Of a DNA stretch of 64,000 nucleotides, positions 7,980 through 61,151 are shown one piece after another. The first letter of the stretch is position 1. Each line of letters opens with the position of its first letter. The notes under the pieces were generated by a model, which did not search any database, was not told the origin of the DNA, and saw only the letters and a program-made list of their open reading frames with translations. This stretch comes from Alphaproteobacteria bacterium 32-64-14 (lineage in GTDB: Bacteria; Pseudomonadota; Alphaproteobacteria; Caulobacterales; Hyphomonadaceae): contig NCEM01000008.1 of assembly GCA_002280725.1 (NCBI GenBank), positions 28,053 to 92,052 of the forward strand, written 5' to 3'. The position numbers were made by a program, and so were the translations under genes.

Positions 7980-9374
7980 ATGGCCGGAAACAACCGCACC
8001 GAAACCGACACCTTTGGCCCAATCGAGGTCGCGCAGGACCGGTATTGGGGCGCACAGGCGCAGCGCTCGCTCGGCAACTTCAAGATCGGCTGGGAAAAGC
8101 AGCCCGCCCCCATCGTCCGCGCCCTGGGTATCGTGAAGCGCGCCGCCGCCGAAGCGAACATGGAGCTTGAAAAGCTCGACCCCAAGATCGGCAAGACCAT
8201 CGTCAAGGCTGCGCAGGAAGTCATCGACGGCAAGCTGCACGATCACTTCCCGCTCGTCGTGTGGCAGACAGGCTCGGGCACGCAGTCCAACATGAACGCC
8301 AACGAGGTGATCTCGAACCGCGCCATCGAGATGCTGGGCGGCATGATGGGTTCAAAGAAGCCGGTCCACCCGAATGACCACGTCAATATGAGCCAGTCGT
8401 CGAACGACACGTTCCCAACCGCGATGCACATCGCCTGCGCCGAACAGATCTCGACCGACTTGCTCCCAGCCCTCGAGCATCTCCACGCCGCGCTCAAGCA
8501 GAAGTCGGCTGACTGGAAGAAGATCATCAAGATCGGCCGCACGCACACGCAGGATGCAACGCCGCTCACCCTCGGCCAGGAATTCGGCGGCTATGCCAAG
8601 CAGATCGAGAACGGCATCGCGCGCATCAAGTCGACCCTGCCCTCGCTGATGGAACTGGCGCAGGGCGGCACCGCCGTCGGCACCGGCCTCAACGCGCCGA
8701 AGGGCTTCGACAAGCTGGTCGCCGCGAAGATCGCCGAAATCACCGGCCTCGCCTTCAAGACGGCCCCGAACAAGTTCGAGGCGCTGGCTGCGCACGATGC
8801 GATGGTCATGTCCCACGGCGCGATCACAACTGTCGCCGCCTCCTGCTTCAAGATTGCCAACGACATCCGCTTCCTCGGGTCGGGTCCGCGCGCGGGTCTG
8901 GGCGAACTCGCCCTGCCGGAAAACGAGCCGGGCTCGTCGATCATGCCGGGCAAGGTCAACCCGACGCAGTGCGAGGCGCTGACGCAAGTCTGCGCCCACA
9001 TCATGGGCAACAACGCCGCCATCAGTTTCGCCGGATCGCAGGGCCATTTCGAGCTCAACGTCTTCAACCCGATGATGGCCTACAACTTCCTGCAGTCCGT
9101 TCGCCTGCTGGCCGACGCTGCGATCTCCTTCACCGACAACTGCGTCGTCGGCATCGAGCCGCGCATCGACAACATCGCAAAGGGCGTCGAGAACTCGCTG
9201 ATGCTGGTCACCGCGCTCAACGGACGCCTCGGCTATGACGCCTGCGCCAAGATCGCCAAGACTGCCCACAAGAACGGCACCACGCTCCGCGAAGAAGCCG
9301 TCGGCGGCGGCTACCTGACCGATGCTGAGTTCACGAAACTCGTTCGTCCCGAAAAGATGATCGGTCCGAAGTAG
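7980..9374 (+). CDS. fumC: Class II fumarate hydratase
   Basis: 464 aa with the fumarate lyase signature [16 protein letters not shown] and the N-terminus [34 protein letters not shown]. Confidence 0.95.
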
Positions 9375-12867: not shown

Positions 12868-13878
12868 CTACCGGTGCCGCCGCCCCTCGGCGTCGAACAC
12901 CAGCACCTTGCCACGATCCACAAAGAGATTGAGCACAGCCCCCGGCGGCGGCGGCTCGGCCGCGATCAGCGGCGACAGCCACGTCTCGCGCGCAAAGCCC
13001 ACCCGCTTGTAGGTCCGGTCCGCGATCTGCTGCTCGCCAATCGCCCGCACGACAAAGCGGACGCAGCCCGGCGTCTCGCGCGCCATGGTGGAATCATCCG
13101 GCCGGAACGCCAGCACACACGGCCCCGAGGCTGGCAGGCTCACGCCCTGCGGCGGCGTCAGGCTCGTGCCATCGGCCAGCCGCCCGCGGCCATCCTTCAT
13201 CGTCATCGCCAGCGTGTTGAGCGATGGCCACGCCGTCGTCTGTGCTGACGCGAAGTTGGCCGGGCTCGCAAACACGCCGGCGACCGGCCCCGCCTGCTGC
13301 ACATGCCCGCCCGACAGCACGACCGTATCCCCGCCCAGACCCAGCGCCTCGTCCGCCCCGCCGGCGGCAAGCACAACCACTGCGCCGCACTCAGCCACCA
13401 TCTGCGCAAGGTCCGGCACGAACTGCGCGCGCTGGTCCGCCGGAAGGCCGCTGGCCGGCGCATCGAGCAACAGCAGCGCCGGCTTCTCCAGCCGCGCCTT
13501 CGCAATCGCCAACCTCACCCGCTCCCCGGCATCGAGCGCGCTCACCACAGCCGAAAGCTTCCCCGAAAGCCCCACGCGGGCCGCCACACCCGCATCAATG
13601 ATCTTGCCGACCTTCTGGCCTGACTTAGCGGCGCCCGCAGACCCGACCCTGACAATGCGCAGCTTGGCCCGCTTGGCCTGCCCGATGTCGCGGCCATTTA
13701 GCCGGATTTCCCCGCCCTGCAGCCGCTCCGCGCCTGCGAGCAGCTTCAGCATGATGTCTCGCGTCGCTGGTGACAGGCCGAGCAGGCTGGTGGGTGTTTC
13801 GCGCGCGCAGGCGAAATCCACGCCTGAAAGCAGGGGCTCCCGGCCTGCTGCGCGCAATGCCTGCTTCAGTTCCAGCAT
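12868..13878 (-). CDS. MalK/UgpC-architecture ABC ATPase homologue with degenerate catalytic motifs (NBD plus TOBE-like C-terminal domain)
   Basis: From MLELKQALRAAGREPLLSGVDF the order of an ABC NBD is kept, but every motif is degraded:
- Walker A reads GLSPATRDIM instead of GxxGxGKS/T.
- The signature reads LDAGE instead of LSGGQ.
- Walker B reads LLLLDAPASGL instead of hhhhDEP.
- There is no H-loop His.
The C-terminus resembles a MalK regulatory domain. Same strand as the symporter and 116 nt upstream of it. Confidence 0.65.
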   Translation of the reverse strand: MLELKQALRAAGREPLLSGVDFACARETPTSLLGLSPATRDIMLKLLAGAERLQGGEIRLNGRDIGQAKRAKLRIVRVGSAGAAKSGQKVGKIIDAGVAARVGLSGKLSAVVSALDAGERVRLAIAKARLEKPALLLLDAPASGLPADQRAQFVPDLAQMVAECGAVVVLAAGGADEALGLGGDTVVLSGGHVQQAGPVAGVFASPANFASAQTTAWPSLNTLAMTMKDGRGRLADGTSLTPPQGVSLPASGPCVLAFRPDDSTMARETPGCVRFVVRAIGEQQIADRTYKRVGFARETWLSPLIAAEPPPPGAVLNLFVDRGKVLVFDAEGRRHR

Positions 13879-29963: not shown

Positions 29964-31547
29964 CTAGTCGATGATGAAGCCGCTCGCGCCCTTGGGCGCG
30001 GCGGTGTTGCCCGTGGTGGCGCCCGGCACGGCATAGACGTCGTTCAGCTTGCCGAACAGAATCGTCCGGGAATCGCGCGCAGTCACGTAGCCGCGGTCCG
30101 GATCGCGGAAGCCCTGCGGATCGGTGGGATCAACCAGATAGGGCGTCACGATTACGACCAGTTCGGTCTCGTCGTTCTGGAAGTCGCGGCTGCGGAACAG
30201 CGCGCCAAGAATCGGAATGTCCTTCGCGCCTGGAACACCATCGAGGTTCTGTTTGGTCTGTTCCTGTATCAGACCCGCAATCACGAGGCTGCCGCCCGAG
30301 GGAATTTCAACCGTTGTCTCCGCGCGGCGTACTTTGAGTGCAGGAATCGTGAGCGTTTGCGCCGCGACCACCTGTCCTGTTGTGGGATCGACCGAGACGC
30401 CGGAGCCGGACTGAAAGCCGCCCTGCGTCGATAGCTCGGATACTTCAACTGACAGCTGCAGCGAGATGCGTCCCTCGGAAAGTACCACTGGCGTATAGCC
30501 AAGGCCGACGCCGAACGGCTTGAACTCGATTGACACCCTGCCGTTGTTCTGCGCCACCGGCACCGGGAACTCGCCGCCGACGAGGAACTTGCCTGCTTCG
30601 CCCGAAATGGCGGCAAGGTTCGGTTCAGCCAGCGTGCGCACGATGCCGACGCGCTCAAGCGCGTTGATCTTGGCGCCGACGGAGCCCTGCTGCGCACCGT
30701 CGACGACGTTCTGATAGCCCATGTTGGCGACAAGACCACCGAGCGACGTACCCGCGACCGGGAAAGCGTTCGAGGTGCCCGCCGACAGCGTCTGCTCCCA
30801 CGCCGGCTTCAGCACGGCGCCGGTCAGCTCCGGCAGACCGGTGATCGGGTTGAGCGCTGTTTCCAGCATGCGCGGCATCAGCTCGCCGAAGCTCATCGAC
30901 CCCGACAGGTTGATTCCCATCTGCTTGATCACCGAGCGCTGCATCTCGACGAAGCGCACCTTCAGCGTGACCTGGTCCTTGCCCTCGATCGCCATCATGT
31001 TGAGGACGCTGGTGTCGTCCTTGGCGTAGGTGCGCGCGAGTTGCAGCACGCGATCCGCGCCCGACAGGTTCGGAACCGAACCCGCGAGGATGATCTTGCC
31101 GTTCACCGCTTCAACCTGAACCTTTGAGCCCGGAACGTGACGCTTGATCAACCCACGCAGCTGATCCATGCCGGCGACGCCATCGGTCACCGAGATTTCC
31201 AGCGTCTTCACCTTGCGGCCCGAATGGTCGAGGAACACGATGTTGCTCTCGCCGGGGGCTACGCCCATCACGGCGACGCGGCGGCGGTCACGCGCGACCA
31301 CGTTGGCGATCTTGTCGTTGGCGATGATCACGTCGCCGATGTCGGCGTCGAACTCGATCATGTAGGACTTGTTGACGGTCAGCGTCAGCACTTCGGTCGA
31401 TTCCGGCGCGGTCGCTTCCGGGATCGTCATGCGCTGTGCGGGCGAACCTGCGAGGTCGCCGCTGGCGGGGGGCTGCGCGAAGGCCTGGGCCGTCAGCGCG
31501 AGCGCGCTGGCGAAGCTCAGCAGGATGAAGTTGCGATTGAACGACAT
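29964..31547 (-). CDS. cpaC: Tad secretin CpaC/RcpA
   Basis: Signal peptide MSFNRNFILLSFASALALTAQAFA, a pilus N-terminal domain, and a secretin C-domain (VPGAKDIPILGALFRSRDFQNDETELVVIVTPYLV). ATG 31547 with GAGG 8 nt upstream is preferred over TTG 31559. Confidence 0.9.
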   Translation of the reverse strand: MSFNRNFILLSFASALALTAQAFAQPPASGDLAGSPAQRMTIPEATAPESTEVLTLTVNKSYMIEFDADIGDVIIANDKIANVVARDRRRVAVMGVAPGESNIVFLDHSGRKVKTLEISVTDGVAGMDQLRGLIKRHVPGSKVQVEAVNGKIILAGSVPNLSGADRVLQLARTYAKDDTSVLNMMAIEGKDQVTLKVRFVEMQRSVIKQMGINLSGSMSFGELMPRMLETALNPITGLPELTGAVLKPAWEQTLSAGTSNAFPVAGTSLGGLVANMGYQNVVDGAQQGSVGAKINALERVGIVRTLAEPNLAAISGEAGKFLVGGEFPVPVAQNNGRVSIEFKPFGVGLGYTPVVLSEGRISLQLSVEVSELSTQGGFQSGSGVSVDPTTGQVVAAQTLTIPALKVRRAETTVEIPSGGSLVIAGLIQEQTKQNLDGVPGAKDIPILGALFRSRDFQNDETELVVIVTPYLVDPTDPQGFRDPDRGYVTARDSRTILFGKLNDVYAVPGATTGNTAAPKGASGFIID

Positions 31548-40502: not shown

Positions 40503-41454
40503 CTACTCTGCAGCAACCCGCTTCTGCGCCTTGTCGAACTGGCCCCATACGCCCTCGGCGCCGTGCCATTCGCCGCCAGTCGCGCCCTTGGAGTATTCCG
40601 TCGCGCGCTGTTCGAAGAAGTTGGCGTGCTCGACCCCGTTAAGGATTTCCGACAGCCACGGGATCGGGTGCTCCTTCACGCCATAGATCGCCGGCAGCTT
40701 GAGCTGGCCCAGGCGCCAGTCTGCGATGTACCGGATGTAGTTCTTGATGTCCTGCGCGGTCATCCCCTGCACCGGGCCCATCGAGAAGGCCAGGTCGATG
40801 AAGGCGTCCTCCATCCGCACCACGGTGCGGCAGCACTCGATGATGTCGTTCTTCACCTCGTCCGTAAGCGCACCGGTTTCCGCCGCCAGCGTGTGGAACA
40901 CGCGGATCATGCCCTCGCAGTGCAGCGACTCATCCCGCACCGACCACGACACGATCTGGCCCATGCCCTTCATCTTGTTCATGCGCGGGAAGTTCATCAG
41001 CATCGCGAACGAGGCAAACAGCTGCAGGCCCTCGGTGAACGCGCCGAACATCGCGACGGTGCGCAGGATGTCCGCATCCGTCTCGACGCCGAACTTCTGC
41101 ATGTAGTCGTGCTTGTCCTTCATCTCCTTGTACTGGGTGAAGGCCGAGAACTCTGAAAACGCGGCTGTAGCGCTCCATGTAGTTGTCGTTCACTTCCACG
41201 TCCGACTGCGTGAAGAAGCGGAAGATCTGCGTCAGCAGCGCGCGCTCGGAATCGTTCAGATTGGCTGCCCAATCCTTCACGTCCTCACCGAGCGGAACTT
41301 CCTCCGGCATCCAGTGGATCTGCTGCTGGCGCTTCCAGAAGTCGTAGGCCCACGGATAGCGGAACGGCTTGTAGGAGTGCGACGGCGTCAGGATGCCCGC
41401 GCGCGCGGCGCTCGCTTCATCTGATTTCACGGGGGTTTTGGCGTCGTCAGCCAT
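40503..41454 (-). pseudogene. nrdB: Class I ribonucleotide reductase beta subunit (R2), disrupted by internal deletion plus frameshift
   Basis: Two ORF fragments lie in different frames. 41454->41155 encodes ...FRYPWAYDFWKRQQQIHWMPEEVPLGEDV...FRFFTQSDVEVNDNYMERYSRVF. From about 41153 a different frame encodes EFSAFTQYKEMKDKHDYMQKF...FTEGLQLFASF...RDESLHCEG...NFFEQRATEYSK. The span is 952 nt, not a multiple of 3. The expected helix with the first ExxH and the radical Tyr is not encoded in any frame. Confidence 0.8.
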
Positions 41455-41487
41455 GAGAATCTCCAGCCATCCCAGCAGTACGGCCGC

Positions 41488-41533
41488 GCACCATATCTAG
41501 GAGCTTTGGCCAGTCGCAACCACTATATCTTGA
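41488..41533 (-). promoter_or_regulatory. Two candidate NrdR boxes upstream of nrdB
   Basis: Plus-strand GCACCATATCTAGGAG (41488-41503) and AACCACTATATCTTGA (41518-41533), centres 30 bp apart. Both resemble the NrdR consensus acaCwAtATaTwgtgt. They lie 34-80 nt upstream of the nrdB ATG. Confidence 0.5.
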
Positions 41534-41693
41534 TGACCAAGGTTAATTATTCCTTGCATCATCACCCAGTAGGCGAGTCTCACACAATCCGTCCCGCTGG
41601 CCAGAGCGCGCGCCAGCAGCATCCACAACGAATTGGTCGCGGGGCGGGTGCATGATCAGGCCAGAAGCCCGCGCCGCCAGCCACACCAACAGC

Positions 41694-41812
41694 GTCATCC
41701 TCGGGTAAGCGAAGCGCATCCCGGGGATCCCGGTTATTGGCCGCCATGGGAAAAGCGACGAATCCCGTTGCCGCTTCCAACCGGGATTCTCGGCACAAGG
41801 CCGAGAATGACC
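41694..41812. repeat. MITE-like repeat, family B copy 1 (119 bp)
   Basis: GTCATCCTCGGGTAAGCGAAGCGCATCCCGGGGATC ... CCAACCGGGATTCTCGGCACAAGGCCGAGAATGACC. The ends are nearly identical to the copy at 46474-46592 and are mutually inverted (GTCATCCTCGGG / CCGAGAATGAC). Confidence 0.7.
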
Positions 41813-41889
41813 ACGCCTGCGCCATCATCCCCAAACGCAAACGGGCCGCCCAAGGGCGGCCCGCGAAAACTCCCGAAAAACCGATCCGC

Positions 41890-42642
41890 CTAGTGGCGCA
41901 GCGTGAAGCTGAAGGCCGCAAACTGCTCGCGTATCTTGACGTCGTGGTCGCCGGCGATGTCGTTGTAGCGCAGCTTCCGCTCAACCAGTCCGAACGACAT
42001 CTGCGAGTTGTCGCCCGTGGAGAACGCGATGCCGACCTGGAGGTCGCCCACCGTCGCCTGATCGCGCAGGCTGGCGCCGTCCATGGCGCGGTTGTCAGCC
42101 ACGTTCCAGACCAGCGCCTCGTTGTCGGCGCCGACGAAGAAATACCAAGAGGGGGCCATCGCCCCTTTGCCACGCAGATCGCGATCGACCAGGTTCGTAC
42201 CGACGCGGAATTCCGCGCCCGCGCTGGCCACGTTGCTGCCGGCGCGGTTGCGCTGGATCTGGGCGCGGGGCGTGAATGACATGTCGAGGCCAAGGCCGGT
42301 CGACTCACTCGAAGCCGCGAAGGAGATTTCACCGCCGAACCGTTCGCCCTTGAGCGTCCGGACGGGCATCGGCGTTGCGAGGTCCAGCGCCTCGAACCGG
42401 GCCGAAGCAAGCGGGCTGGCAAGGCGCGAGGGCCCGAACTGGCTGCCGACGCTGAGCGGCAGGCCGAAATCCTGTTCGGTCGGGTTGGCGAGGATGATCT
42501 CGCGCGGCGGATCGCCGGTCTGAAAGGATTGAGGACCATTAACCGGTCCGACGGACAGCACGATGGCTTCCGGATCGGCCGGTGGCGTCGCGCACGTGAG
42601 GCACGAAGCGAAGACGAAGCTACCTGCTAGACTGGCAATCAT
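41890..42642 (-). CDS. Outer-membrane beta-barrel protein, possibly LpxR/DUF2219-like
   Basis: Signal-like N-terminus MIASLAGSFVFASC, alternating beta-strand pattern and an aromatic C-terminal strand (QFAAFSFTLRH). The segment SWYFFVGADNEALVWNV...DG resembles DUF2219 text. The family call is tentative. Confidence 0.5.
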   Translation of the reverse strand: MIASLAGSFVFASCLTCATPPADPEAIVLSVGPVNGPQSFQTGDPPREIILANPTEQDFGLPLSVGSQFGPSRLASPLASARFEALDLATPMPVRTLKGERFGGEISFAASSESTGLGLDMSFTPRAQIQRNRAGSNVASAGAEFRVGTNLVDRDLRGKGAMAPSWYFFVGADNEALVWNVADNRAMDGASLRDQATVGDLQVGIAFSTGDNSQMSFGLVERKLRYNDIAGDHDVKIREQFAAFSFTLRH

Positions 42643-42826
42643 TTTAACTGCTCGTCCCAGACATGAACAACCCGAAGGCTGATCCCACCAAATTACCAAA
42701 ACCATAACGGAGTTGGTGAAATTGTGTTCCCGCCTCGGGCCCCAGGCCCGCTAAATCTTTAACGAGCCTAGTCCAAAAGGCCTCTGCGAACAACTATTCG
42801 CCCTCAGCCCCACCCCCCATAAGCAA

Positions 42827-42881: not shown

Positions 42882-44741
42882 CTACTGGCAGGCGAGGCAC
42901 TCGTCGTAGTCGGTGCGCCCTCTGCCCATGTCCATTTCGACTTTTTCCCGATCCGAGCCAGCAAAGCCCGCGCGCTGGATCGATTTCGACCGGCAATAGT
43001 AAAGCGACTTGAGGCCCTTCTCCCACGCCGTCCAGTGCAGCATGTGGAGATCCCACTTATCGATGTCGGCCGGCAGGAACAGGTTAAGCGACTGGCCCTG
43101 GCAGATGTAGGGGGTGCGGTCAGCCGCCAGTTCGATGATCCAGCGCTGGTCGATCTCGAAGGCGGTGCGGAACACCAGCTTCTCCTGCCCGGTCAGGCAA
43201 TCCAGGTGCTGCACCGAACCCTCGTTCTCGAGGATCGAGGCCCAGATGCCCGGCGTGTTGTTGCCGGTTTTCTCCAGCACCTGCTCGAGGAAGGGGTTCT
43301 TCACCGAGAATGAGCCCGACAGGGTCTTGTGCGTGTAGATGTTGGCCGGGATCGGCTCGATGCCCGCCGACGTGCCGCCGCAGATGATCGAGATCGACGC
43401 CGTCGGCGCGATCGCCAGCTTGTGGCTGAAGCGCGCCATCACGCCCATGTCTTCCGCATCCGGGCAGGCGCCCCGCTCTTTCGCCAGCTTCACCGAAGCC
43501 GCATCCGCGCCACGGCGCAGGTGCTTGAACATCACATTGTTCCACGACTTGGCCGTGGACGATTCCATCGCAACGCCCTGGCTCTGCAGGAACGAGTGGA
43601 AGCCCATCAGACCAAGGCCAACCGAGCGCTCGCGCTTGGCCGAATAGACCGCGCGGTGCATTTCCGGCGGCGCACGCTTGATGAAGTCTTCCAGCACGTT
43701 GTCGAGGAAGCGGAAGATGTCATCGAGGAAATTCTCGTTGCTCTTCCACTCGAGGAACTTCTCGGCGTTGACCGACGAGAGGCAGCAGACTGCCGTACGG
43801 TCAACGCCGAGATGGTCCGGGCCCGTGTGCAGCATGATTTCCGAGCATAGGTTCGACTGGCGGACCTTGAAGCCCAGCTGTTTCTGGTGCGCCGGCATCG
43901 CGTTGTTGGTGGTGTCGGTGAACAGCAGGTAGGGCTCGCCCGTCGCCATCCGCAGCTCGAGGATCTTCTGCCACAGCTTGCGGGCGGAGATCTCTTTCAT
44001 CACTTCACCGGTCTTCGGCGACTTCAGTTGGAACGGCGCGTCCTGGCGCACGGCTTCCATGAACTCGTCGGTGATGTTGATGCCGTGGTGCAGGTTCAGC
44101 GACTTGCGGTTGAAGTCGCCGGCCGCCTTGCGGATTTCGAGGAACTCCTCGATCTCCGGGTGGAACACGTCGAGATAGCAGGCCGCCGAGCCGCGGCGCA
44201 GCGAGCCCTGCGAAATCGCCAGCGTCAGCGAATCCATCACGCGGATGAAGGGGATGATGCCCGACGTCTGCCCGTTCTGGCCGACCTTCTCGCCGATCGA
44301 GCGGACTTCGCCCCAATAGGTGCCGATGCCGCCGCCGTTCGAGGCAAGCCACACGTTCTCGTTCCAGGTCTCGACGATGCCGTCCAGCGAGTCGGAGACG
44401 CCATTCAGGAAGCACGAGATCGGCAGGCCGCGATCGGCCCCGCCGTTCGACAGCACAGGCGTCGCCGGCATGAACCAGAGGCGCGAGATGTAGTCGTAAA
44501 TCCGTTGCGCATGTACGACATCATCCGAGTACGCCAGAGCGACTCGGGCAAACATGTCCTGGTACGACTCACCCGGCAGGACGTAGCGGTCATCCAGCGT
44601 CTTCTTGCCGAAATCGGTCAGGAGGGCGTCACGCGAGGGGTCGGTCTTCACGCCCTCGACGACCCGCAGACCGCTCTGCGCCTTGGGCTTCCCACGGCGG
44701 GCGGCGGTCTTGTCTTCGGTGAGAACGGCTTCTGCGGACAT
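42882..44741 (-). CDS. nrdA: Class I ribonucleoside-diphosphate reductase alpha subunit (short form without ATP-cone)
   Basis: 619 aa with catalytic-site text (LPISCFLNGVSDS, NLCSEIML, CCLSSVN) and the C-terminal redox Cys pair (DYDECLACQ). Confidence 0.9.
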   Translation of the reverse strand: MSAEAVLTEDKTAARRGKPKAQSGLRVVEGVKTDPSRDALLTDFGKKTLDDRYVLPGESYQDMFARVALAYSDDVVHAQRIYDYISRLWFMPATPVLSNGGADRGLPISCFLNGVSDSLDGIVETWNENVWLASNGGGIGTYWGEVRSIGEKVGQNGQTSGIIPFIRVMDSLTLAISQGSLRRGSAACYLDVFHPEIEEFLEIRKAAGDFNRKSLNLHHGINITDEFMEAVRQDAPFQLKSPKTGEVMKEISARKLWQKILELRMATGEPYLLFTDTTNNAMPAHQKQLGFKVRQSNLCSEIMLHTGPDHLGVDRTAVCCLSSVNAEKFLEWKSNENFLDDIFRFLDNVLEDFIKRAPPEMHRAVYSAKRERSVGLGLMGFHSFLQSQGVAMESSTAKSWNNVMFKHLRRGADAASVKLAKERGACPDAEDMGVMARFSHKLAIAPTASISIICGGTSAGIEPIPANIYTHKTLSGSFSVKNPFLEQVLEKTGNNTPGIWASILENEGSVQHLDCLTGQEKLVFRTAFEIDQRWIIELAADRTPYICQGQSLNLFLPADIDKWDLHMLHWTAWEKGLKSLYYCRSKSIQRAGFAGSDREKVEMDMGRGRTDYDECLACQ

Positions 44742-44795: not shown

Positions 44796-44843
44796 CCCAA
44801 TGGATTGGTATCCGGCGCCAGCCCCGACGCTAGATATAGTGTC
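44796..44843 (-). promoter_or_regulatory. Candidate NrdR box pair upstream of nrdA
   Basis: CGCTAGATATAGTGTC (44828-44843) is a good match to the NrdR box. A weaker partner ACCCAATGGATTGGTA (44796-44811) lies 32 bp away centre to centre. Both are 55-100 nt upstream of the nrdA ATG. Confidence 0.45.
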
Positions 44844-46434: not shown

Positions 46435-46473
46435 GACGAGCCACCCTCTCCCCTGCGCAACCACACCACCGGT

Positions 46474-46592
46474 GTCATCCTCGGGTAAGCGAAGCGCATC
46501 CCGGGGATCTCGGTTGGCTCGTCAGCGGAATACGACAACGTATCCCGCTGCAGGCCCCAACCGGGATTCTCGGGACAAGCCCGAGAATGACC
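46474..46592. repeat. MITE-like repeat, family B copy 2 (119 bp)
   Basis: Same length as the copy at 41694-41812 and near-identical terminal ~36 nt. The centre is diverged. Confidence 0.7.
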
Positions 46593-46620
46593 TCGCAAGT
46601 TGCAACACCGCGATCTCGCG

Positions 46621-46710
46621 CCTCGTCCTTCGACAGGCTCAGGATGAGGCGCTCTCTCGCTGTCGGTGCTTAGGCCTCATGCTGAGCCTGTCGAAGCACG
46701 AGGCCGTGCT
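46621..46710. repeat. Palindromic hairpin repeat, family A copy 1
   Basis: CCTCGTCCTTCGACAGGCTCAGGATGAGGCGCT-loop-AGGCCTCATGCTGAGCCTGTCGAAGCACGAGGCCGTGCTC. About 28-bp inverted arms. Confidence 0.7.
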
Positions 46711-46724
46711 CGCCGGTAGCTCAC

Positions 46725-47741
46725 TTACTGCGCCGCGCCCGCCGCCAACACGCGCTCGATCTCGCGCCAGTCGACGATCTTGAAGTTCTGGTCGATCTCC
46801 GCGGTCGGGTTGGCGTCGTCCTGCACGACCAGCACGCCGGCCGGAAACCCAGGCAGCGGCGCGGACGAGGCATCCAGCCCGTCCGTCACGCTCGTGCCGT
46901 CCACCTTGCCATCGGCGCTCGGGCCGATCTTGAAGACGCCCAGCGCCGCGTGTGGCGGCTTGCGATCGTAGATCACGTAGCGGTCGGCGCCCTGCGCAGA
47001 CGCCACCAGATAGCCCGCGCCGTCCGCCTTCAGATACAGCGACACGCCCTCGACATCGGCCACAAGACCCGTGCCGCTGCCGGCCTTGTCGATGCTGCGC
47101 GGGATCATATCCTCCGACAGCAGGTCCACGACCCACAGGCCAACATTTTCTTCGCCCACGAACAACCGCCCTCCGTCGTCATCGATCACACAGCCCTCGA
47201 TCTGCGAGCCAAGCTTGATCGTGCGCCGCTCCGAAATCTGCACCGGGCCAGCGCCCGTGTCGGTCACGCGCCAGAACTCCACCAGCCCGTCCTTGTAGGT
47301 GACGACCGCATTGAGGTTGCCCTGGATGCGGCCGATGCACACGCCGTAAGGCTCGATGCTGGCGAGCTTGGTATCGCCCGCATGCGTCACCATCGCCGTC
47401 GCCGGGTCGATGCGGAACCAGCTCAGTGCGTTGACGCCGTCATTGCTGGCGACCGCAAGATTGCCGCGAAGATCGACATTGTTGGACAGGCCAACCGGAA
47501 GACGCTGCTTCTCCGAGCCATCGAGCCCGTACACATAGACGCCGACATCCTTGTTGGTGCCAAGGATCAGGCTCTGCGCCGCATTGGTCGGGTGAACCCA
47601 CACGGCCGGATCATCCGCCGCATCGCCCGTCGATCCCATGCCAACCGTCTCGACGGCCGCCGGAACGACACGCGCCACAACGTTATCAGTGGCGCAGGCG
47701 CCCGCGAGCAGGAGCAGCGAAAGAGCGGCGTGCGATTTCAT
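46725..47741 (-). CDS. Beta-propeller phytase (3-phytase), lipoprotein
   Basis: Lipobox LLLAGAC, then DDPAVWVHP and EGCVIDDDGGRLFVGEENVGLWV, both characteristic BPP motifs. Confidence 0.8.
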   Translation of the reverse strand: MKSHAALSLLLLAGACATDNVVARVVPAAVETVGMGSTGDAADDPAVWVHPTNAAQSLILGTNKDVGVYVYGLDGSEKQRLPVGLSNNVDLRGNLAVASNDGVNALSWFRIDPATAMVTHAGDTKLASIEPYGVCIGRIQGNLNAVVTYKDGLVEFWRVTDTGAGPVQISERRTIKLGSQIEGCVIDDDGGRLFVGEENVGLWVVDLLSEDMIPRSIDKAGSGTGLVADVEGVSLYLKADGAGYLVASAQGADRYVIYDRKPPHAALGVFKIGPSADGKVDGTSVTDGLDASSAPLPGFPAGVLVVQDDANPTAEIDQNFKIVDWREIERVLAAGAAQ

Positions 47742-51535: not shown

Positions 51536-51550
51536 CGTCCGCAAGCCCGC

Positions 51551-51645
51551 GCCGCATCCTTCGACAGGCTCAGGATGAGGCGCTAAGCAACATGGGTGGG
51601 AAAGGCCTCATCCTGAGCCTGTCGAAGGACGAGGCCGTGCTCACC
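51551..51645. repeat. Palindromic hairpin repeat, family A copy 2
   Basis: GCCGCATCCTTCGACAGGCTCAGGATGAGGCGCT-loop-GGCCTCATCCTGAGCCTGTCGAAGGACGAGGCCGTGCTCAC. Confidence 0.7.
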
Positions 51646-51654
51646 GGCGCCAGC

Positions 51655-52149: not shown

Positions 52150-52225
52150 AATCGCGCGCGATTAAATCGCAAGGCTTGACCGGCCCGCCGAGCAAGCATA
52201 ATTCAATCGCACGCGATCAAATCGC
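52150..52225. promoter_or_regulatory. Two copies of a 21-bp unit AATCGC(G/A)CGCGAT(T/C)AAATCGC; candidate OhrR operators flanking a TTGACC...CATAAT promoter
   Basis: Copies at 52150-52170 (containing the perfect palindrome AATCGCGCGCGATT) and 52205-52225. TTGACC at 52176 and CATAAT at 52197 lie between them, in the ohrR-ohr divergent region. Confidence 0.4.
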
Positions 52226-56610: not shown

Positions 56611-58056
56611 ATGTCCACACATCCGTTTACGCTCGGATCGCGCTTGGCTCTGGCCGCCGCATCCTTCGCTATCCTGGCTGCTTGCAACCCAACTGAGCCC
56701 GCCAAGCCGGCCGAACCCGCCGTCGTCGCCAAGGCGTATGACGACGCCGCCTGGCCTGCCGCCCCCGCCGCAGACACCGCCGCGCTCGGCTTCACCGCGG
56801 AAGGCCTCGCCGCGCTCGACGCACGCATGGCCAAGTCGGTCGACGACCAGGACGTCGCCGGCATGGTCTACATCCTCGGCAAGGGCGGCGACATTGCCGC
56901 CTTCGGCGCGCACGGCATCCAGTCCGGCGACCCGAAGACCGGAACGCCCATCACCAAGGACAGCCTCTTCCGCATCTACTCCATGTCGAAGCCGATCACC
57001 GGCGTCGCCATGATGCAGCTCTACGAGAAGGGCCTGTGGCAGATGGACGATCCCGTCTCCAAGCACGTGCCCGAACTCGCGGGCCTGCAGGTGCTGACGT
57101 GGAAAGACGGCAAGCCTGTGATGAAGGATGGCAAGCCCGTGCTCGCCGCCGCCTCGCACGAGCCCACGATGAAAGAGCTGATGAGCCACACCGGCGGTTT
57201 CGGCTATGGCCTGTCGGGCGATGATCCGGTCAACACCGCCTTCCGCGACACGGGCGTTCTCGCCTCCGCAAACCTCGAAGAGATGATCGGCAAGATCAAG
57301 GACATCCCCCTGATCTACGATCCGGGCACGCGCTGGTATTACTCGGTGTCGGTCGATATACAGGGCTACATCGTCCAGAAGCTCTCGGGCCAGAAGTTCG
57401 GCGACTACCTGAAAGCCAACATCTTCACCCCGCTCGGCATGAACGACACCTCGTTCTTCGTCACCGACGCCACCAAGCCGCGCTTCACCGACGTCTATCA
57501 CTGGGACAAGGACAAGTCCGCGCTCGTCGCCAACGTCGATCGCCCCGACCGTCCGGGCTTCGACAATCCGGCCCGCCTCGAATCCGGCGGCGGCGGTCTC
57601 GTCTCCTCGACGCACGACTATGCGCGCTTCGCCCAGATGTTCCTCAACAAGGGCACGCTCGGCGGCAATCAGGTCATCAAGCCTGAGACGGTCGAACTGA
57701 TGCGCACCAACGCTATCGGCGACCTGCGCCTGTACTCGGACGGCACGACCGCCAACCCGGGCCTGCCCGGCGTCGGCTTCGGCATGGACTTCGCGGTCTA
57801 TGACGACACGTCCGTCACCGGCCAGCCCTACGGCAAGGGCACGCACTACTGGGGCGGCGCCGCCGGGACGTGGTTCTGGATCGATCCCGCCAACGACCTC
57901 TTCTTCGTCGGCATGATCCAGTCGATGGGCGGCGCGCGTCCCGATGCGATGAACTATCGCAACGAGTCCGCGAAGCTGGTCTACGGCGCCCTTGCCACCG
58001 CCGCAGCCGCCCCCGCGGCTCCGGCTGACGCAGCCAAGCCCACGACCACGCCGTAA
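56611..58056 (+). CDS. Serine hydrolase (class C beta-lactamase/esterase family), lipoprotein
   Basis: Lipobox ILAAC. SxxK as SMSKPITGVAMMQL and YSV (YxN-like) further on. 481 aa. Confidence 0.85.
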   Translation: MSTHPFTLGSRLALAAASFAILAACNPTEPAKPAEPAVVAKAYDDAAWPAAPAADTAALGFTAEGLAALDARMAKSVDDQDVAGMVYILGKGGDIAAFGAHGIQSGDPKTGTPITKDSLFRIYSMSKPITGVAMMQLYEKGLWQMDDPVSKHVPELAGLQVLTWKDGKPVMKDGKPVLAAASHEPTMKELMSHTGGFGYGLSGDDPVNTAFRDTGVLASANLEEMIGKIKDIPLIYDPGTRWYYSVSVDIQGYIVQKLSGQKFGDYLKANIFTPLGMNDTSFFVTDATKPRFTDVYHWDKDKSALVANVDRPDRPGFDNPARLESGGGGLVSSTHDYARFAQMFLNKGTLGGNQVIKPETVELMRTNAIGDLRLYSDGTTANPGLPGVGFGMDFAVYDDTSVTGQPYGKGTHYWGGAAGTWFWIDPANDLFFVGMIQSMGGARPDAMNYRNESAKLVYGALATAAAAPAAPADAAKPTTTP

Positions 58057-58285: not shown

Positions 58286-59617
58286 ATGAAGCGCTCAATG
58301 ACGGCCACCCGCTTTGGAAAACTCTGGCTCGCGGCGGGCCTCGCCAGCGTACTGGCCGCCTGCACCGCAATGGAAGCGGCCGCGCCCGCAGCTACTTCGC
58401 AGGCCGCAGCTCCCGCCGCCTCGACAGCCTGGCCGGCCGCCAAGGACGTCGTCGCCACACAATCCATCTTCACGCCCGCCGGGCTTCAGGCGCTCGACGC
58501 CCGCCTCAAGGAAGCCGTCGACAAGGGCGAGGTCGCCGGCCTGCAGTATGCGCTGGTGAAGGACGGCAAGCTGATCGCGTTCAACACGTTCGGCGCGCAA
58601 GCGTATGGCGGCCCCGCCGTCACCGAGAACACCATCTTCCGCATCCGCTCGATGACGAAGCCCATCGTCGGCGTCGCGATGATGCAGCTGTGGGAGAAGG
58701 GCCTCTGGAAGCCGGAAGACCCGGTCACCAAATTCCTGCCCGAGCTTGGCAATCTCAGAGTCGCCACCAATCGCGACTCGATCACTGAAGGCCTCGTGCC
58801 GGCCACGCGCGCGCCGAACATGAACGAGGTGATGACCCACACCGCCGGCTTCGGCTACGGCCTCTCGGCGGCCTCGGCGGTCGACAAGGAGTTCCAGCGC
58901 TCCAACCCGCACGCACAGCCCAACCTGCCCGCCGCCATGAAGCGCCTCGCCGAAATCCCGCTGCTGTTCCAGCCCGGCGAACGCTGGAGCTACTCCTACG
59001 CCGTCGATGTGCAGGCCGCCGCGCTCGAGAAAATGACGGGCACGACGCTGGGCGCCTATCTCGACGCCAACGTCTTCAAGCCGCTCGGCATGAAGGACAC
59101 GGCGTTCTTCCTGTCACAGCAGGACTACGACACGCGCCTCGCCACGGTGTACCAGCGCAGCGCTGCGGGCGAGAAGGAAGCCTTCCTCGATGGCTACAGC
59201 TTCACCGTCCGCAACCATCACGAATCGGGCGGCGGCGGCCTCACCTCGACCACGCACGACTATGTCCGCTTCGCGCAGATGATTCTCAACGAGGGCACGC
59301 TGGACGGAAAGCAGATCCTCAAGCCCGGCACCGTGAAGGTGATGATGTCGAACCACATCGGCGACACCAAAGGCGTGTTCGGCGGCGCAGGCTTCGGCTG
59401 GGGCGGCGCCGTGAAACTCGCCGAACCCACCGATGCAGCGCCCGCGCCCGTGGGCACGTATGACTGGTTCGGCATCGACGGCACATGGTTCTGGATCGAT
59501 CCCGCCAACGACATCGCCTTCGTCGGCATGATCCAGCGCCGCGGCAACCCCGGCCAGGGCGCGGTGAACCTCCGCGGCGAGTCACAACAACTCGTCTACA
59601 AGGCGCTGGTGAAATAG
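58286..59617 (+). CDS. Serine hydrolase (class C beta-lactamase/esterase family), lipoprotein; paralogue of the upstream gene
   Basis: Lipobox VLAAC. SxxK as SMTKPIVGVAMMQL. Long stretches are collinear with 56611..58056 (THTAGFGYGLS, GGGGL.S..HDY.RFAQM.LN.GTL, W.WIDPANDI.FVGMIQ). Confidence 0.85.
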   Translation: MKRSMTATRFGKLWLAAGLASVLAACTAMEAAAPAATSQAAAPAASTAWPAAKDVVATQSIFTPAGLQALDARLKEAVDKGEVAGLQYALVKDGKLIAFNTFGAQAYGGPAVTENTIFRIRSMTKPIVGVAMMQLWEKGLWKPEDPVTKFLPELGNLRVATNRDSITEGLVPATRAPNMNEVMTHTAGFGYGLSAASAVDKEFQRSNPHAQPNLPAAMKRLAEIPLLFQPGERWSYSYAVDVQAAALEKMTGTTLGAYLDANVFKPLGMKDTAFFLSQQDYDTRLATVYQRSAAGEKEAFLDGYSFTVRNHHESGGGGLTSTTHDYVRFAQMILNEGTLDGKQILKPGTVKVMMSNHIGDTKGVFGGAGFGWGGAVKLAEPTDAAPAPVGTYDWFGIDGTWFWIDPANDIAFVGMIQRRGNPGQGAVNLRGESQQLVYKALVK

Positions 59618-59775
59618 CTCTCTGGACCGCCGGGCCCCTGCTTGCCTTGCCGAAGCTCAAAGAGCGCAGGCAGGCCCGGCAATCGCTGCCAAGCAGCGAC
59701 ACATCGACAGACCTTCTCCGTCACGCCGCGTCTTAGCGGCGAGACGGCGAAGGTCTCGCGATCACGCCCACCGCG

Positions 59776-59868
59776 CCTCGTCCTTCGACAGGCTCAGGAT
59801 GAGGCGCTCCAGCACCATCGCCCCATAGGCCTCATCCTGAGCCTGTCGAAGGACGAGGCCGTGCTCAC
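59776..59868. repeat. Palindromic hairpin repeat, family A copy 3
   Basis: CCTCGTCCTTCGACAGGCTCAGGATGAGGCGCT-loop-GGCCTCATCCTGAGCCTGTCGAAGGACGAGGCCGTGCTCAC. Confidence 0.7.
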
Positions 59869-60016
59869 CAGCGCTCGAAAACCGGGGAAACACCTCTCCC
59901 CAATCCGTCGGAGACCCAAAAACAATCCCGCCCGATCTCAACGCACTGGCCGCAGAATTTGTAGGATAGAGCGCCGCAGACTCCGCCGGCCCATCGGCGG
60001 AGGTACACTGCCGCGC

Positions 60017-60964: not shown

Positions 60965-61058
60965 CCAGGCCTCACCGCAAACCACCCGCCTCGCAGCTTG
61001 CTGCGAGGTCGCGGGCGTATCTGGACCGCCGGGCCGCGAACATAACGAAGCCCGCGCC

Positions 61059-61151
61059 GCATCCTTCGACAGGCTCAGGATGAGGCGCTCTCTCAGACAC
61101 TGGTGGAGAAGGCCTCATCCTGAGCCTGTCGAAGGACGAGGCCGTGCTCAC
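61059..61151. repeat. Palindromic hairpin repeat, family A copy 4
   Basis: GCATCCTTCGACAGGCTCAGGATGAGGCGCT-loop-GGCCTCATCCTGAGCCTGTCGAAGGACGAGGCCGTGCTCAC. Shares the 5' extension AAGCCCGCGCCGCATCC with copy 2. Confidence 0.7.

Follow-up and report, generated by a model that had tools for sequence, protein, structure and literature searches.

A 104-nt gap disrupts nrdB in one assembly of an uncultured Hyphomonadaceae-like bacterium: assembly fault or young microhomology deletion

The ribonucleotide reductase (RNR) gene nrdB in the 64-kb stretch of DNA analysed here, to which we refer as the window, is disrupted in a manner far beyond chance: one contiguous block of 104 nt is gone, the reading frame shifts at the junction, and the allele as written is certainly a null whose product cannot function as an R2. 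There is nothing unusual or new about the gene itself, an ordinary NrdB, and what disrupts it is an assembly fault or else a young microhomology deletion. Of these we favour an artefact at the level of the assembly or the library, introduced for example while this assembly was being built, to which we give a probability of roughly 0.55; the same strain, assembled independently, carries the intact sequence.

Anatomy of the nrdB lesion

The broken gene occupies the minus strand from 41454 to 40503, and frame translations bear out the earlier observation that it measures 952 nt from start to stop with its remainder in another frame. The 5′ ORF begins MADDAK and is native from M1 to F100 (41454-41155), the native part closing with NDNYMERYSRVF; beyond this it passes through 74 nonsense codons before the stop codon at 40930-40932. 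The remainder of nrdB continues in the +1 frame as (S)EFSAFTQYKEM and onward to VAAE and the stop codon at 40503, reading (S)EFSAFTQYKEMKDKHDYMQKF...FTEGLQLF...RDESLH...NFFEQRATEYSK...VAAE. The match to PF00268 is divided between the two frames, the 5′ fragment covering profile positions 3-75 and the 3′ fragment 117-281; positions ~76-116, where the first ExxH and the Tyr are found, are absent from the window allele. When aligned to chain A of 9dws, query residue 100 falls at chain residue ~92 and residue 101 at chain residue 126.

Alignment with nine full-length relatives (344-363 aa, the closest being 351 aa) sets the protein gap at exactly 34 residues, with identities of 93-95% to the six closest of the nine outside the gap, and alignment at the DNA level sets it at 104 nt, or 34 codons plus 2 nt. 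The sequence-only reading of this DNA had proposed one clean internal deletion with a frameshift, of length 2 mod 3, costing about 35 residues or roughly 100 nt, and both alignments agree with it closely. It had also proposed that the helix with the first ExxH and the radical Tyr was lost, and the missing residues R101-D134 (RPTEIKMMLASFSNMETIHIAAYALLLETIGMPD) indeed include E116, H119 and Y123, which in established numbering are E115, H118 and Y122 of E. coli R2. The downstream ligands are retained as it had stated, the E of FTEG and the ExxH of RDESLH both being read in the 3′ fragment. The 5′ fragment is 100% identical in amino acid sequence to the intact conspecific NrdB.

The deleted DNA, taken from the intact conspecific allele, is CGCCCGACAGAG...CCCGATTC. 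The trinucleotide TTC is present at both deletion borders, giving a 3-nt microhomology (41157-41155) that is also the end of the deleted segment, and several close relatives have GAT TCA GAG at the 3′ border of the segment; taken together, these show that one contiguous loss of 104 nt explains the junction GTT TTC|A GAG. Searches of the window by tblastn and blastn for the 34-aa or 104-nt segment at another position gave chance matches only. The features of the locus, together with gaps in a second assembly of the same strain described below, are listed in Table 1.

Table 1. Coordinates of features in the window, including the positions of gaps private to the same-strain assembly NCCQ01.
Feature	Position	Strand	Basis or remark
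nrdB 5′ fragment, codons 1-100 (MADDAK...YSRVF)	41155..41454	-	with first metal ligand Asp (FTQSD)
Deletion junction GTT TTC|A GAG	41154..41157	-	104 nt gone between 41155 and 41154
Out-of-frame read-through, 74 nonsense codons (Arg/His/Gly-rich), then stop	40930..41154	-	frame translation
nrdB 3′ fragment, +1 frame, (S135)E136..E351 and stop	40503..41154	-	frame translation, PF00268, alignment
GGAG ribosome-binding site, 6 nt upstream of nrdB ATG	41461..41464	-	sequence reading
Two NrdR-box-like cores, AGATATGGTG (41489-41498) and AGATATAGTG (41521-41530)	41489..41530	-	32 bp apart start to start
LpxR-like gene, 250 aa, between nrdA and nrdB, same strand	41890..42642	-	weak PF09982 match, no NCBIfam match
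nrdA, intact class I alpha subunit, 619 aa, no ATP-cone	42882..44741	-	NF006577
NrdR-box-like core AGATATAGTG upstream of nrdA	44832..44841	+	motif scan
NCCQ01-private gap, 184 nt inside fumC	8136-8319		window and GCA_027312005.1 intact
NCCQ01 run of 38 N standing for 42 nt	~13547-13588		window intact
NCCQ01-private gap, 26 nt inside cpaC secretin gene	~30097-30122		window and GCA_027312005.1 intact
NCCQ01-private gap, 28 nt, 5′ part of beta-lactamase ORF	~56731-56758		window intact; outside compared GCA_027312005.1 stretch

The intact gene is an ordinary class I RNR beta subunit (NF007186, PF00268) whose first ligand is Asp and whose radical site has a Tyr. Against NF007186, for which the cut-off is 237, the intact conspecific allele reaches 566 bits, and it aligns from end to end with chain A of 9dws, the closest solved structure (E = 3.7e-90); a literature search on 9dws or on the conspecific accessions found nothing. 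In alignment to the R2 of Chlamydia trachomatis (1syy/2ani), D85 of the intact protein is paired with E89, E116 with E120, H119 with H123, and Y123 with F127, which is a Tyr in the 2ani mutant. The ligand pattern of the intact allele is D...ExxH...E...ExxH, with a Tyr, the radical-site residue of class Ia/Ib enzymes, four residues past the first His, and matches D84/E115/H118/Y122/E204/E238/H241 of E. coli R2. Of the six ligands, the window allele retains D85, the E of FTEG and the ExxH of RDESLH, and the first ExxH (METIH) lies within the missing 34 residues; the radical-site Tyr (Y123) is deleted with it, and the split allele does not give a full-length ferritin-like domain above the family cut-off. 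Set against the class I R2 family, a frameshifted gene without the first ExxH/Tyr region is a broken member and not a variant.

Were this allele expressed, a protein begun at the normal start would have 74 nonsense residues after its 100 native ones, and the 3′ part would be without the Tyr and without one each of the Glu and His ligands. With E116, H119 and Y123 gone and the frame shifted, no dimetal-tyrosyl cofactor could form and the intact NrdA would be left without a radical source; from established R2 biochemistry, class I activity would be zero. The idea that programmed frameshifting or a split R2 might still yield a working protein from the two fragments is favoured by the retained ribosome-binding site and promoter elements and by nothing else. 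No frame can restore the three residues, the 104 nt being absent from the whole window; no relative lacks the segment among 72 loci that reach it; and the 3′ fragment, whose first in-frame ATG is at 41123, has no start or ribosome-binding site of its own before codon M146. We regard programmed frameshifting and a split gene as ruled out, the ligand-bearing residues simply being missing.

The 72 loci are part of a set of 80 related loci drawn from species-representative genomes of Hyphomonadaceae and Caulobacterales, the other eight contigs either ending before the segment or being without the search motif. The segment is kept in all 72, almost invariant, and nrdB is strongly conserved across the whole clade. 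The sequence-only reading had allowed that functional orthologues might naturally lack this segment; we find no such orthologue either in the 72 loci or among the closest database proteins, and on this comparative evidence the segment is not dispensable. There is no conspecific genome in the species-representative set, where the best match has 97% amino-acid identity.

Intact copies in the species and in the strain

Conspecific sequences are nonetheless available in other assemblies. Contig DAICXV010000001.1 (372 kb) of GCA_027312005.1 is collinear with positions 1-52741 of the window, as compared in three pieces, with few SNPs (at most 13 in any ~21-kb piece) and with the 104-nt nrdB gap as the sole indel. 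Its nrdB is intact and encodes 351 aa, corresponding to both window fragments, which are identical to it in amino acid sequence, plus the 34 missing residues. On the side of the 3′ fragment there are no mismatches to GCA_027312005.1 over 6172 nt, and none occurs within nrdB or in the 5.5 kb past its 3′ end. The intact 351-aa NrdB is present on seven contigs from seven samples, and two more conspecific contigs, although cut, also carry the 104 nt; in all conspecific contigs the alignment with the window breaks at 41155/41157. Contigs from SRR5352531 and SRR5352532 match the window at 99.9-100%. The sequence-only reading had named, as an outcome that would count against its view, the recovery of about 100 extra nt restoring an ORF of ~350 aa, and this is what every available conspecific assembly contains. 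We also note that seven SNPs relative to GCA_027312005.1 are clustered, with three in 32 nt (52182-52213), three in 5 nt (47246-47250, in a phytase gene) and a single one at 42780, a distribution which suggests strain mixing or small patches of recombination.

A closer comparison is provided by GCA_002279755.1 (NCCQ01), an assembly of the same strain, in which each contig piece shows 0-2 mismatches to the window; towards nrdA from the breakpoint there are 2 over 14.4 kb, and the 4.1 kb in the other direction have none. Contig 13 of this assembly extends from nrdA across the intact 104 nt as far as gene nt 492. Contig 44, which matches the window at 100% identity for 4.1 kb, has its first base at gene nt 402, where it reads TTCAGAGTTC (TTCAGAG), and it overlaps contig 13 by 91 nt. 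This start corresponds to window position 41157, the exact right breakpoint inclusive of the microhomology, so that an assembly boundary falls on the breakpoint to the nucleotide. Gene nt 402 is also the first base common to both alleles; one position earlier the intact allele has A where the deleted allele has T. The boundary would fit a graph branch made by junction-bearing reads at the point where the alleles first agree, and it would fit equally a left contig abutted to the same right-hand contig over a gap of ~100 nt and merged on 2-3 nt. A strain SNP was considered as the cause of the boundary and set aside; none of the known SNPs (gene nt 498, 501 and 519) lies directly next to the shared vertex of 91 nt, the nearest being at 498 where 493 is needed, which leaves room only for a hypothetical synonymous CTG/TTG difference at nt 493.

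NCCQ01 has gaps of its own, at positions where the window is intact (Table 1). Those in fumC, cpaC and the beta-lactamase ORF are frame- or gene-breaking, and two gaps between consecutive NCCQ01 contigs, of 73 and 95 nt, belong to the same size class. Because they occur where the window is intact, gaps of such size go with the assembly rather than with the strain. The two same-strain assemblies are thus separated by four short deletions that break genes, each private to one assembly, as against five SNPs, a ratio of deletions to SNPs that is unlike that of natural populations and points to a technical cause.

To find the deletion allele in other records, 13 plausible truncated or cut products, covering several start codons and cut points, were searched in a collection of 15 billion proteins. 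Twelve of them are absent from the collection, including the products of the 174-aa and 206-aa ORFs; the thirteenth, a cut product of 217 aa, was found only on NCCQ01000044.1 of the same-strain assembly, whose sister contig has the intact 104 nt. A degenerate pattern for the junction, which does match the window, gave no match in JGI metagenome contigs, and no Logan contig on record has its start or its end at the breakpoints.

Origin of the gap

An artefact could have arisen by either of two routes. Neighbouring contigs may have been joined over a gap of ~100 nt, by abutting them or by merging them where 2-3 nt overlap, or the assembler may have taken chimeric or minority reads; by either route the species, and this very strain, would carry an intact and conserved nrdB. 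In favour of an artefact are the intact conspecific and same-strain copies, the absence of the deleted allele from the other records searched, the conservation of the segment in relatives and, tipping the balance, the private gaps of NCCQ01. The lack of secondary decay agrees with this, nrdB, nrdA, the ribosome-binding site and the NrdR-like boxes being otherwise unchanged, as does the fact that a cell cannot do without nrdB if it has no other RNR. Against it, there is no other indel in 52.7 kb of the window, which indicates that its assembler was not generally sloppy; the start of contig 44 at the first shared base would also fit a graph branch from real junction reads; and the flanking homology is just 3 nt with no repeated k-mer, so that collapse of a de Bruijn graph on a repeated k-mer cannot explain the gap. 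Longer repeats or hairpins uniting the breakpoints were sought in the intact allele, which has only a weak 15-nt inverted pair and none that brackets the deletion. The fallback proposal of the sequence-only reading, that the assembly is collapsed here, is no less likely than a real mutation. The gap resembles the local misassemblies and abutted scaffold gaps of short-read MAGs, being short (these range from tens to ~200 nt), private and frame-breaking, with little flanking homology and a position coinciding with a contig boundary in the sister assembly, which itself has like gaps elsewhere as well as a run of N; it is unlike that class in that there is no run of N at the window site and in being a single event in 64 kb.

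A real but unfixed variant is a possible, though less probable, alternative to such an artefact. Very recent slippage or illegitimate recombination at TTC would have produced a subpopulation coexisting with intact cells, the window assembly having taken the deleted path and the sister assembly the intact one; that a real allele segregates beside the intact one within a single population, natural or enriched, of this uncultured Hyphomonadaceae-like bacterium can be put forward only tentatively. The 3-nt microhomology at the breakpoints speaks for such an event, the 100% identity of the flanks fits a very young event, and contig 44 starts at the first shared base, with the 91-nt overlap behaving like a branching vertex at k=91 and no known conspecific SNP adjoining either end of that vertex. 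The lesion likewise has the features of a spontaneous microhomology deletion or young pseudogene, namely one contiguous loss, a 3-nt direct repeat, a frameshift and no secondary decay, but it departs from these in that no other sample shows it and in that the strain's other assembly is intact. Null alleles of this sort in essential genes are normally purged, and this one would need a frequency high enough to become the main assembly path; yet the allele is in no other record, the left breakpoint is not the end of any contig on record, and the four gene-breaking deletions against five SNPs between assemblies of one strain form a technical pattern. If a segregating allele were nevertheless the true explanation, class I RNR would be conditionally dispensable, for example through a B12-dependent NrdJ or deoxynucleoside cross-feeding, and loss-of-function variants of a core enzyme could reach assembly-level frequency.

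A fixed loss, in which the strain is uniformly without nrdB, uses another RNR (NrdJ, NrdEF or a second nrdB) and keeps nrdA as a relic near decay, is unlikely, and the evidence gathered here argues against it. It is true that the allele as written is a certain null, and that many Alphaproteobacteria have a B12-dependent class II RNR in addition to class I. A search for a second RNR in the window, in which the 10 largest remaining ORFs were scanned with Pfam and phmmer was run with NrdA and NrdB against all six-frame ORFs, found none, and no cobalamin riboswitch or other known RNA near nrdA and nrdB reaches the threshold of any Rfam family. In Streptomyces, nrdAB lies behind a B12 riboswitch and nrdJ is present in addition, a redundancy which would explain survival without NrdB, but unlike that arrangement the window has neither nrdJ nor a cobalamin riboswitch, and the nrdB locus has NrdR-like boxes instead. 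Nor is the disruption supported by independent sequence from the same strain, GCA_002279755.1 having the intact 104 nt, or accompanied by secondary decay in the form of substitutions or loss of promoter or partner; there is no further lesion in nrdB, nrdA or the control sites, and nrdB is a gene that the clade strongly conserves. The earlier picture of a strain with a dead nrdB, another RNR and a decaying nrdA is thus unsupported, the same-strain and conspecific assemblies being intact and decay being absent. Were the loss fixed and real, the organism would be leaving the oxygen-dependent class I RNR behind, with a bearing on B12 ecology and RNR evolution. To any explanation other than those considered here we assign a very small chance.

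The favoured reading, an artefact, carries a practical message, in that, when one metagenome-derived assembly shows an essential gene with a frameshift, conspecific assemblies should be checked before gene loss is claimed. Short gene-breaking gaps that differ between assemblies of the same strain are a quality problem, and one that would inflate pseudogene counts for the lineage.

The nrdA partner, control sites and intergenic repeats

An intact partner for the beta subunit is encoded nearby. NrdA scores 1009 bits against NF006577, covering profile positions 10-604 of 604, and the window protein is found verbatim on four public contigs, DAICXV010000001.1 among them, in agreement with the earlier description of nrdA as intact. 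The alpha subunit is short, and its nearest solved relatives are 6dqw and 6dqx, which we take to be class Id alpha subunits. The gene order nrdA, LpxR-like gene, nrdB is kept in many Hyphomonadaceae-like relatives, although not in the relative L001.

The sequence-only reading had also described a ribosome-binding site and NrdR-like boxes as retained upstream of nrdB, and this holds: the GGAG is in place, as are two AGATATRGTG cores 32 bp apart. Members of the NrdR regulon carry tandem boxes in front of their nrd genes, at a distance of about 31-32 bp from each other. A scan for such boxes gives four matches where 1.55 are expected by chance, and six of 100 shuffles give as many, such that these are to be read as putative sites. 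Of the two putative cores at nrdB, the second is identical in L001 and the first differs there by one base.

Several repeats were noted in the surrounding DNA. An intergenic repeat of ~140 nt is present in two copies with 82% identity, one between the LpxR-like gene and nrdB (41678-41816) and the other between amidohydrolase and phytase genes (46458-46596), and has no Rfam match; most short-read conspecific contigs that enter nrdB from that side begin in, or just 3′ of, the copy next to nrdB. A second intergenic element, of ~100 nt, occurs four times (46617-46714, 51543-51650, 59771-59874 and 61048-61151), with copies 80-91% identical and no Rfam match at the gathering threshold; it matches itself on both strands and is therefore palindromic, resembling REP or MITE elements. 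Finally, two adjacent genes of the beta-lactamase family (PF00144), both on the plus strand at 56611-58056 and 58286-59617, are paralogues with ~64% nucleotide identity over ~1 kb.
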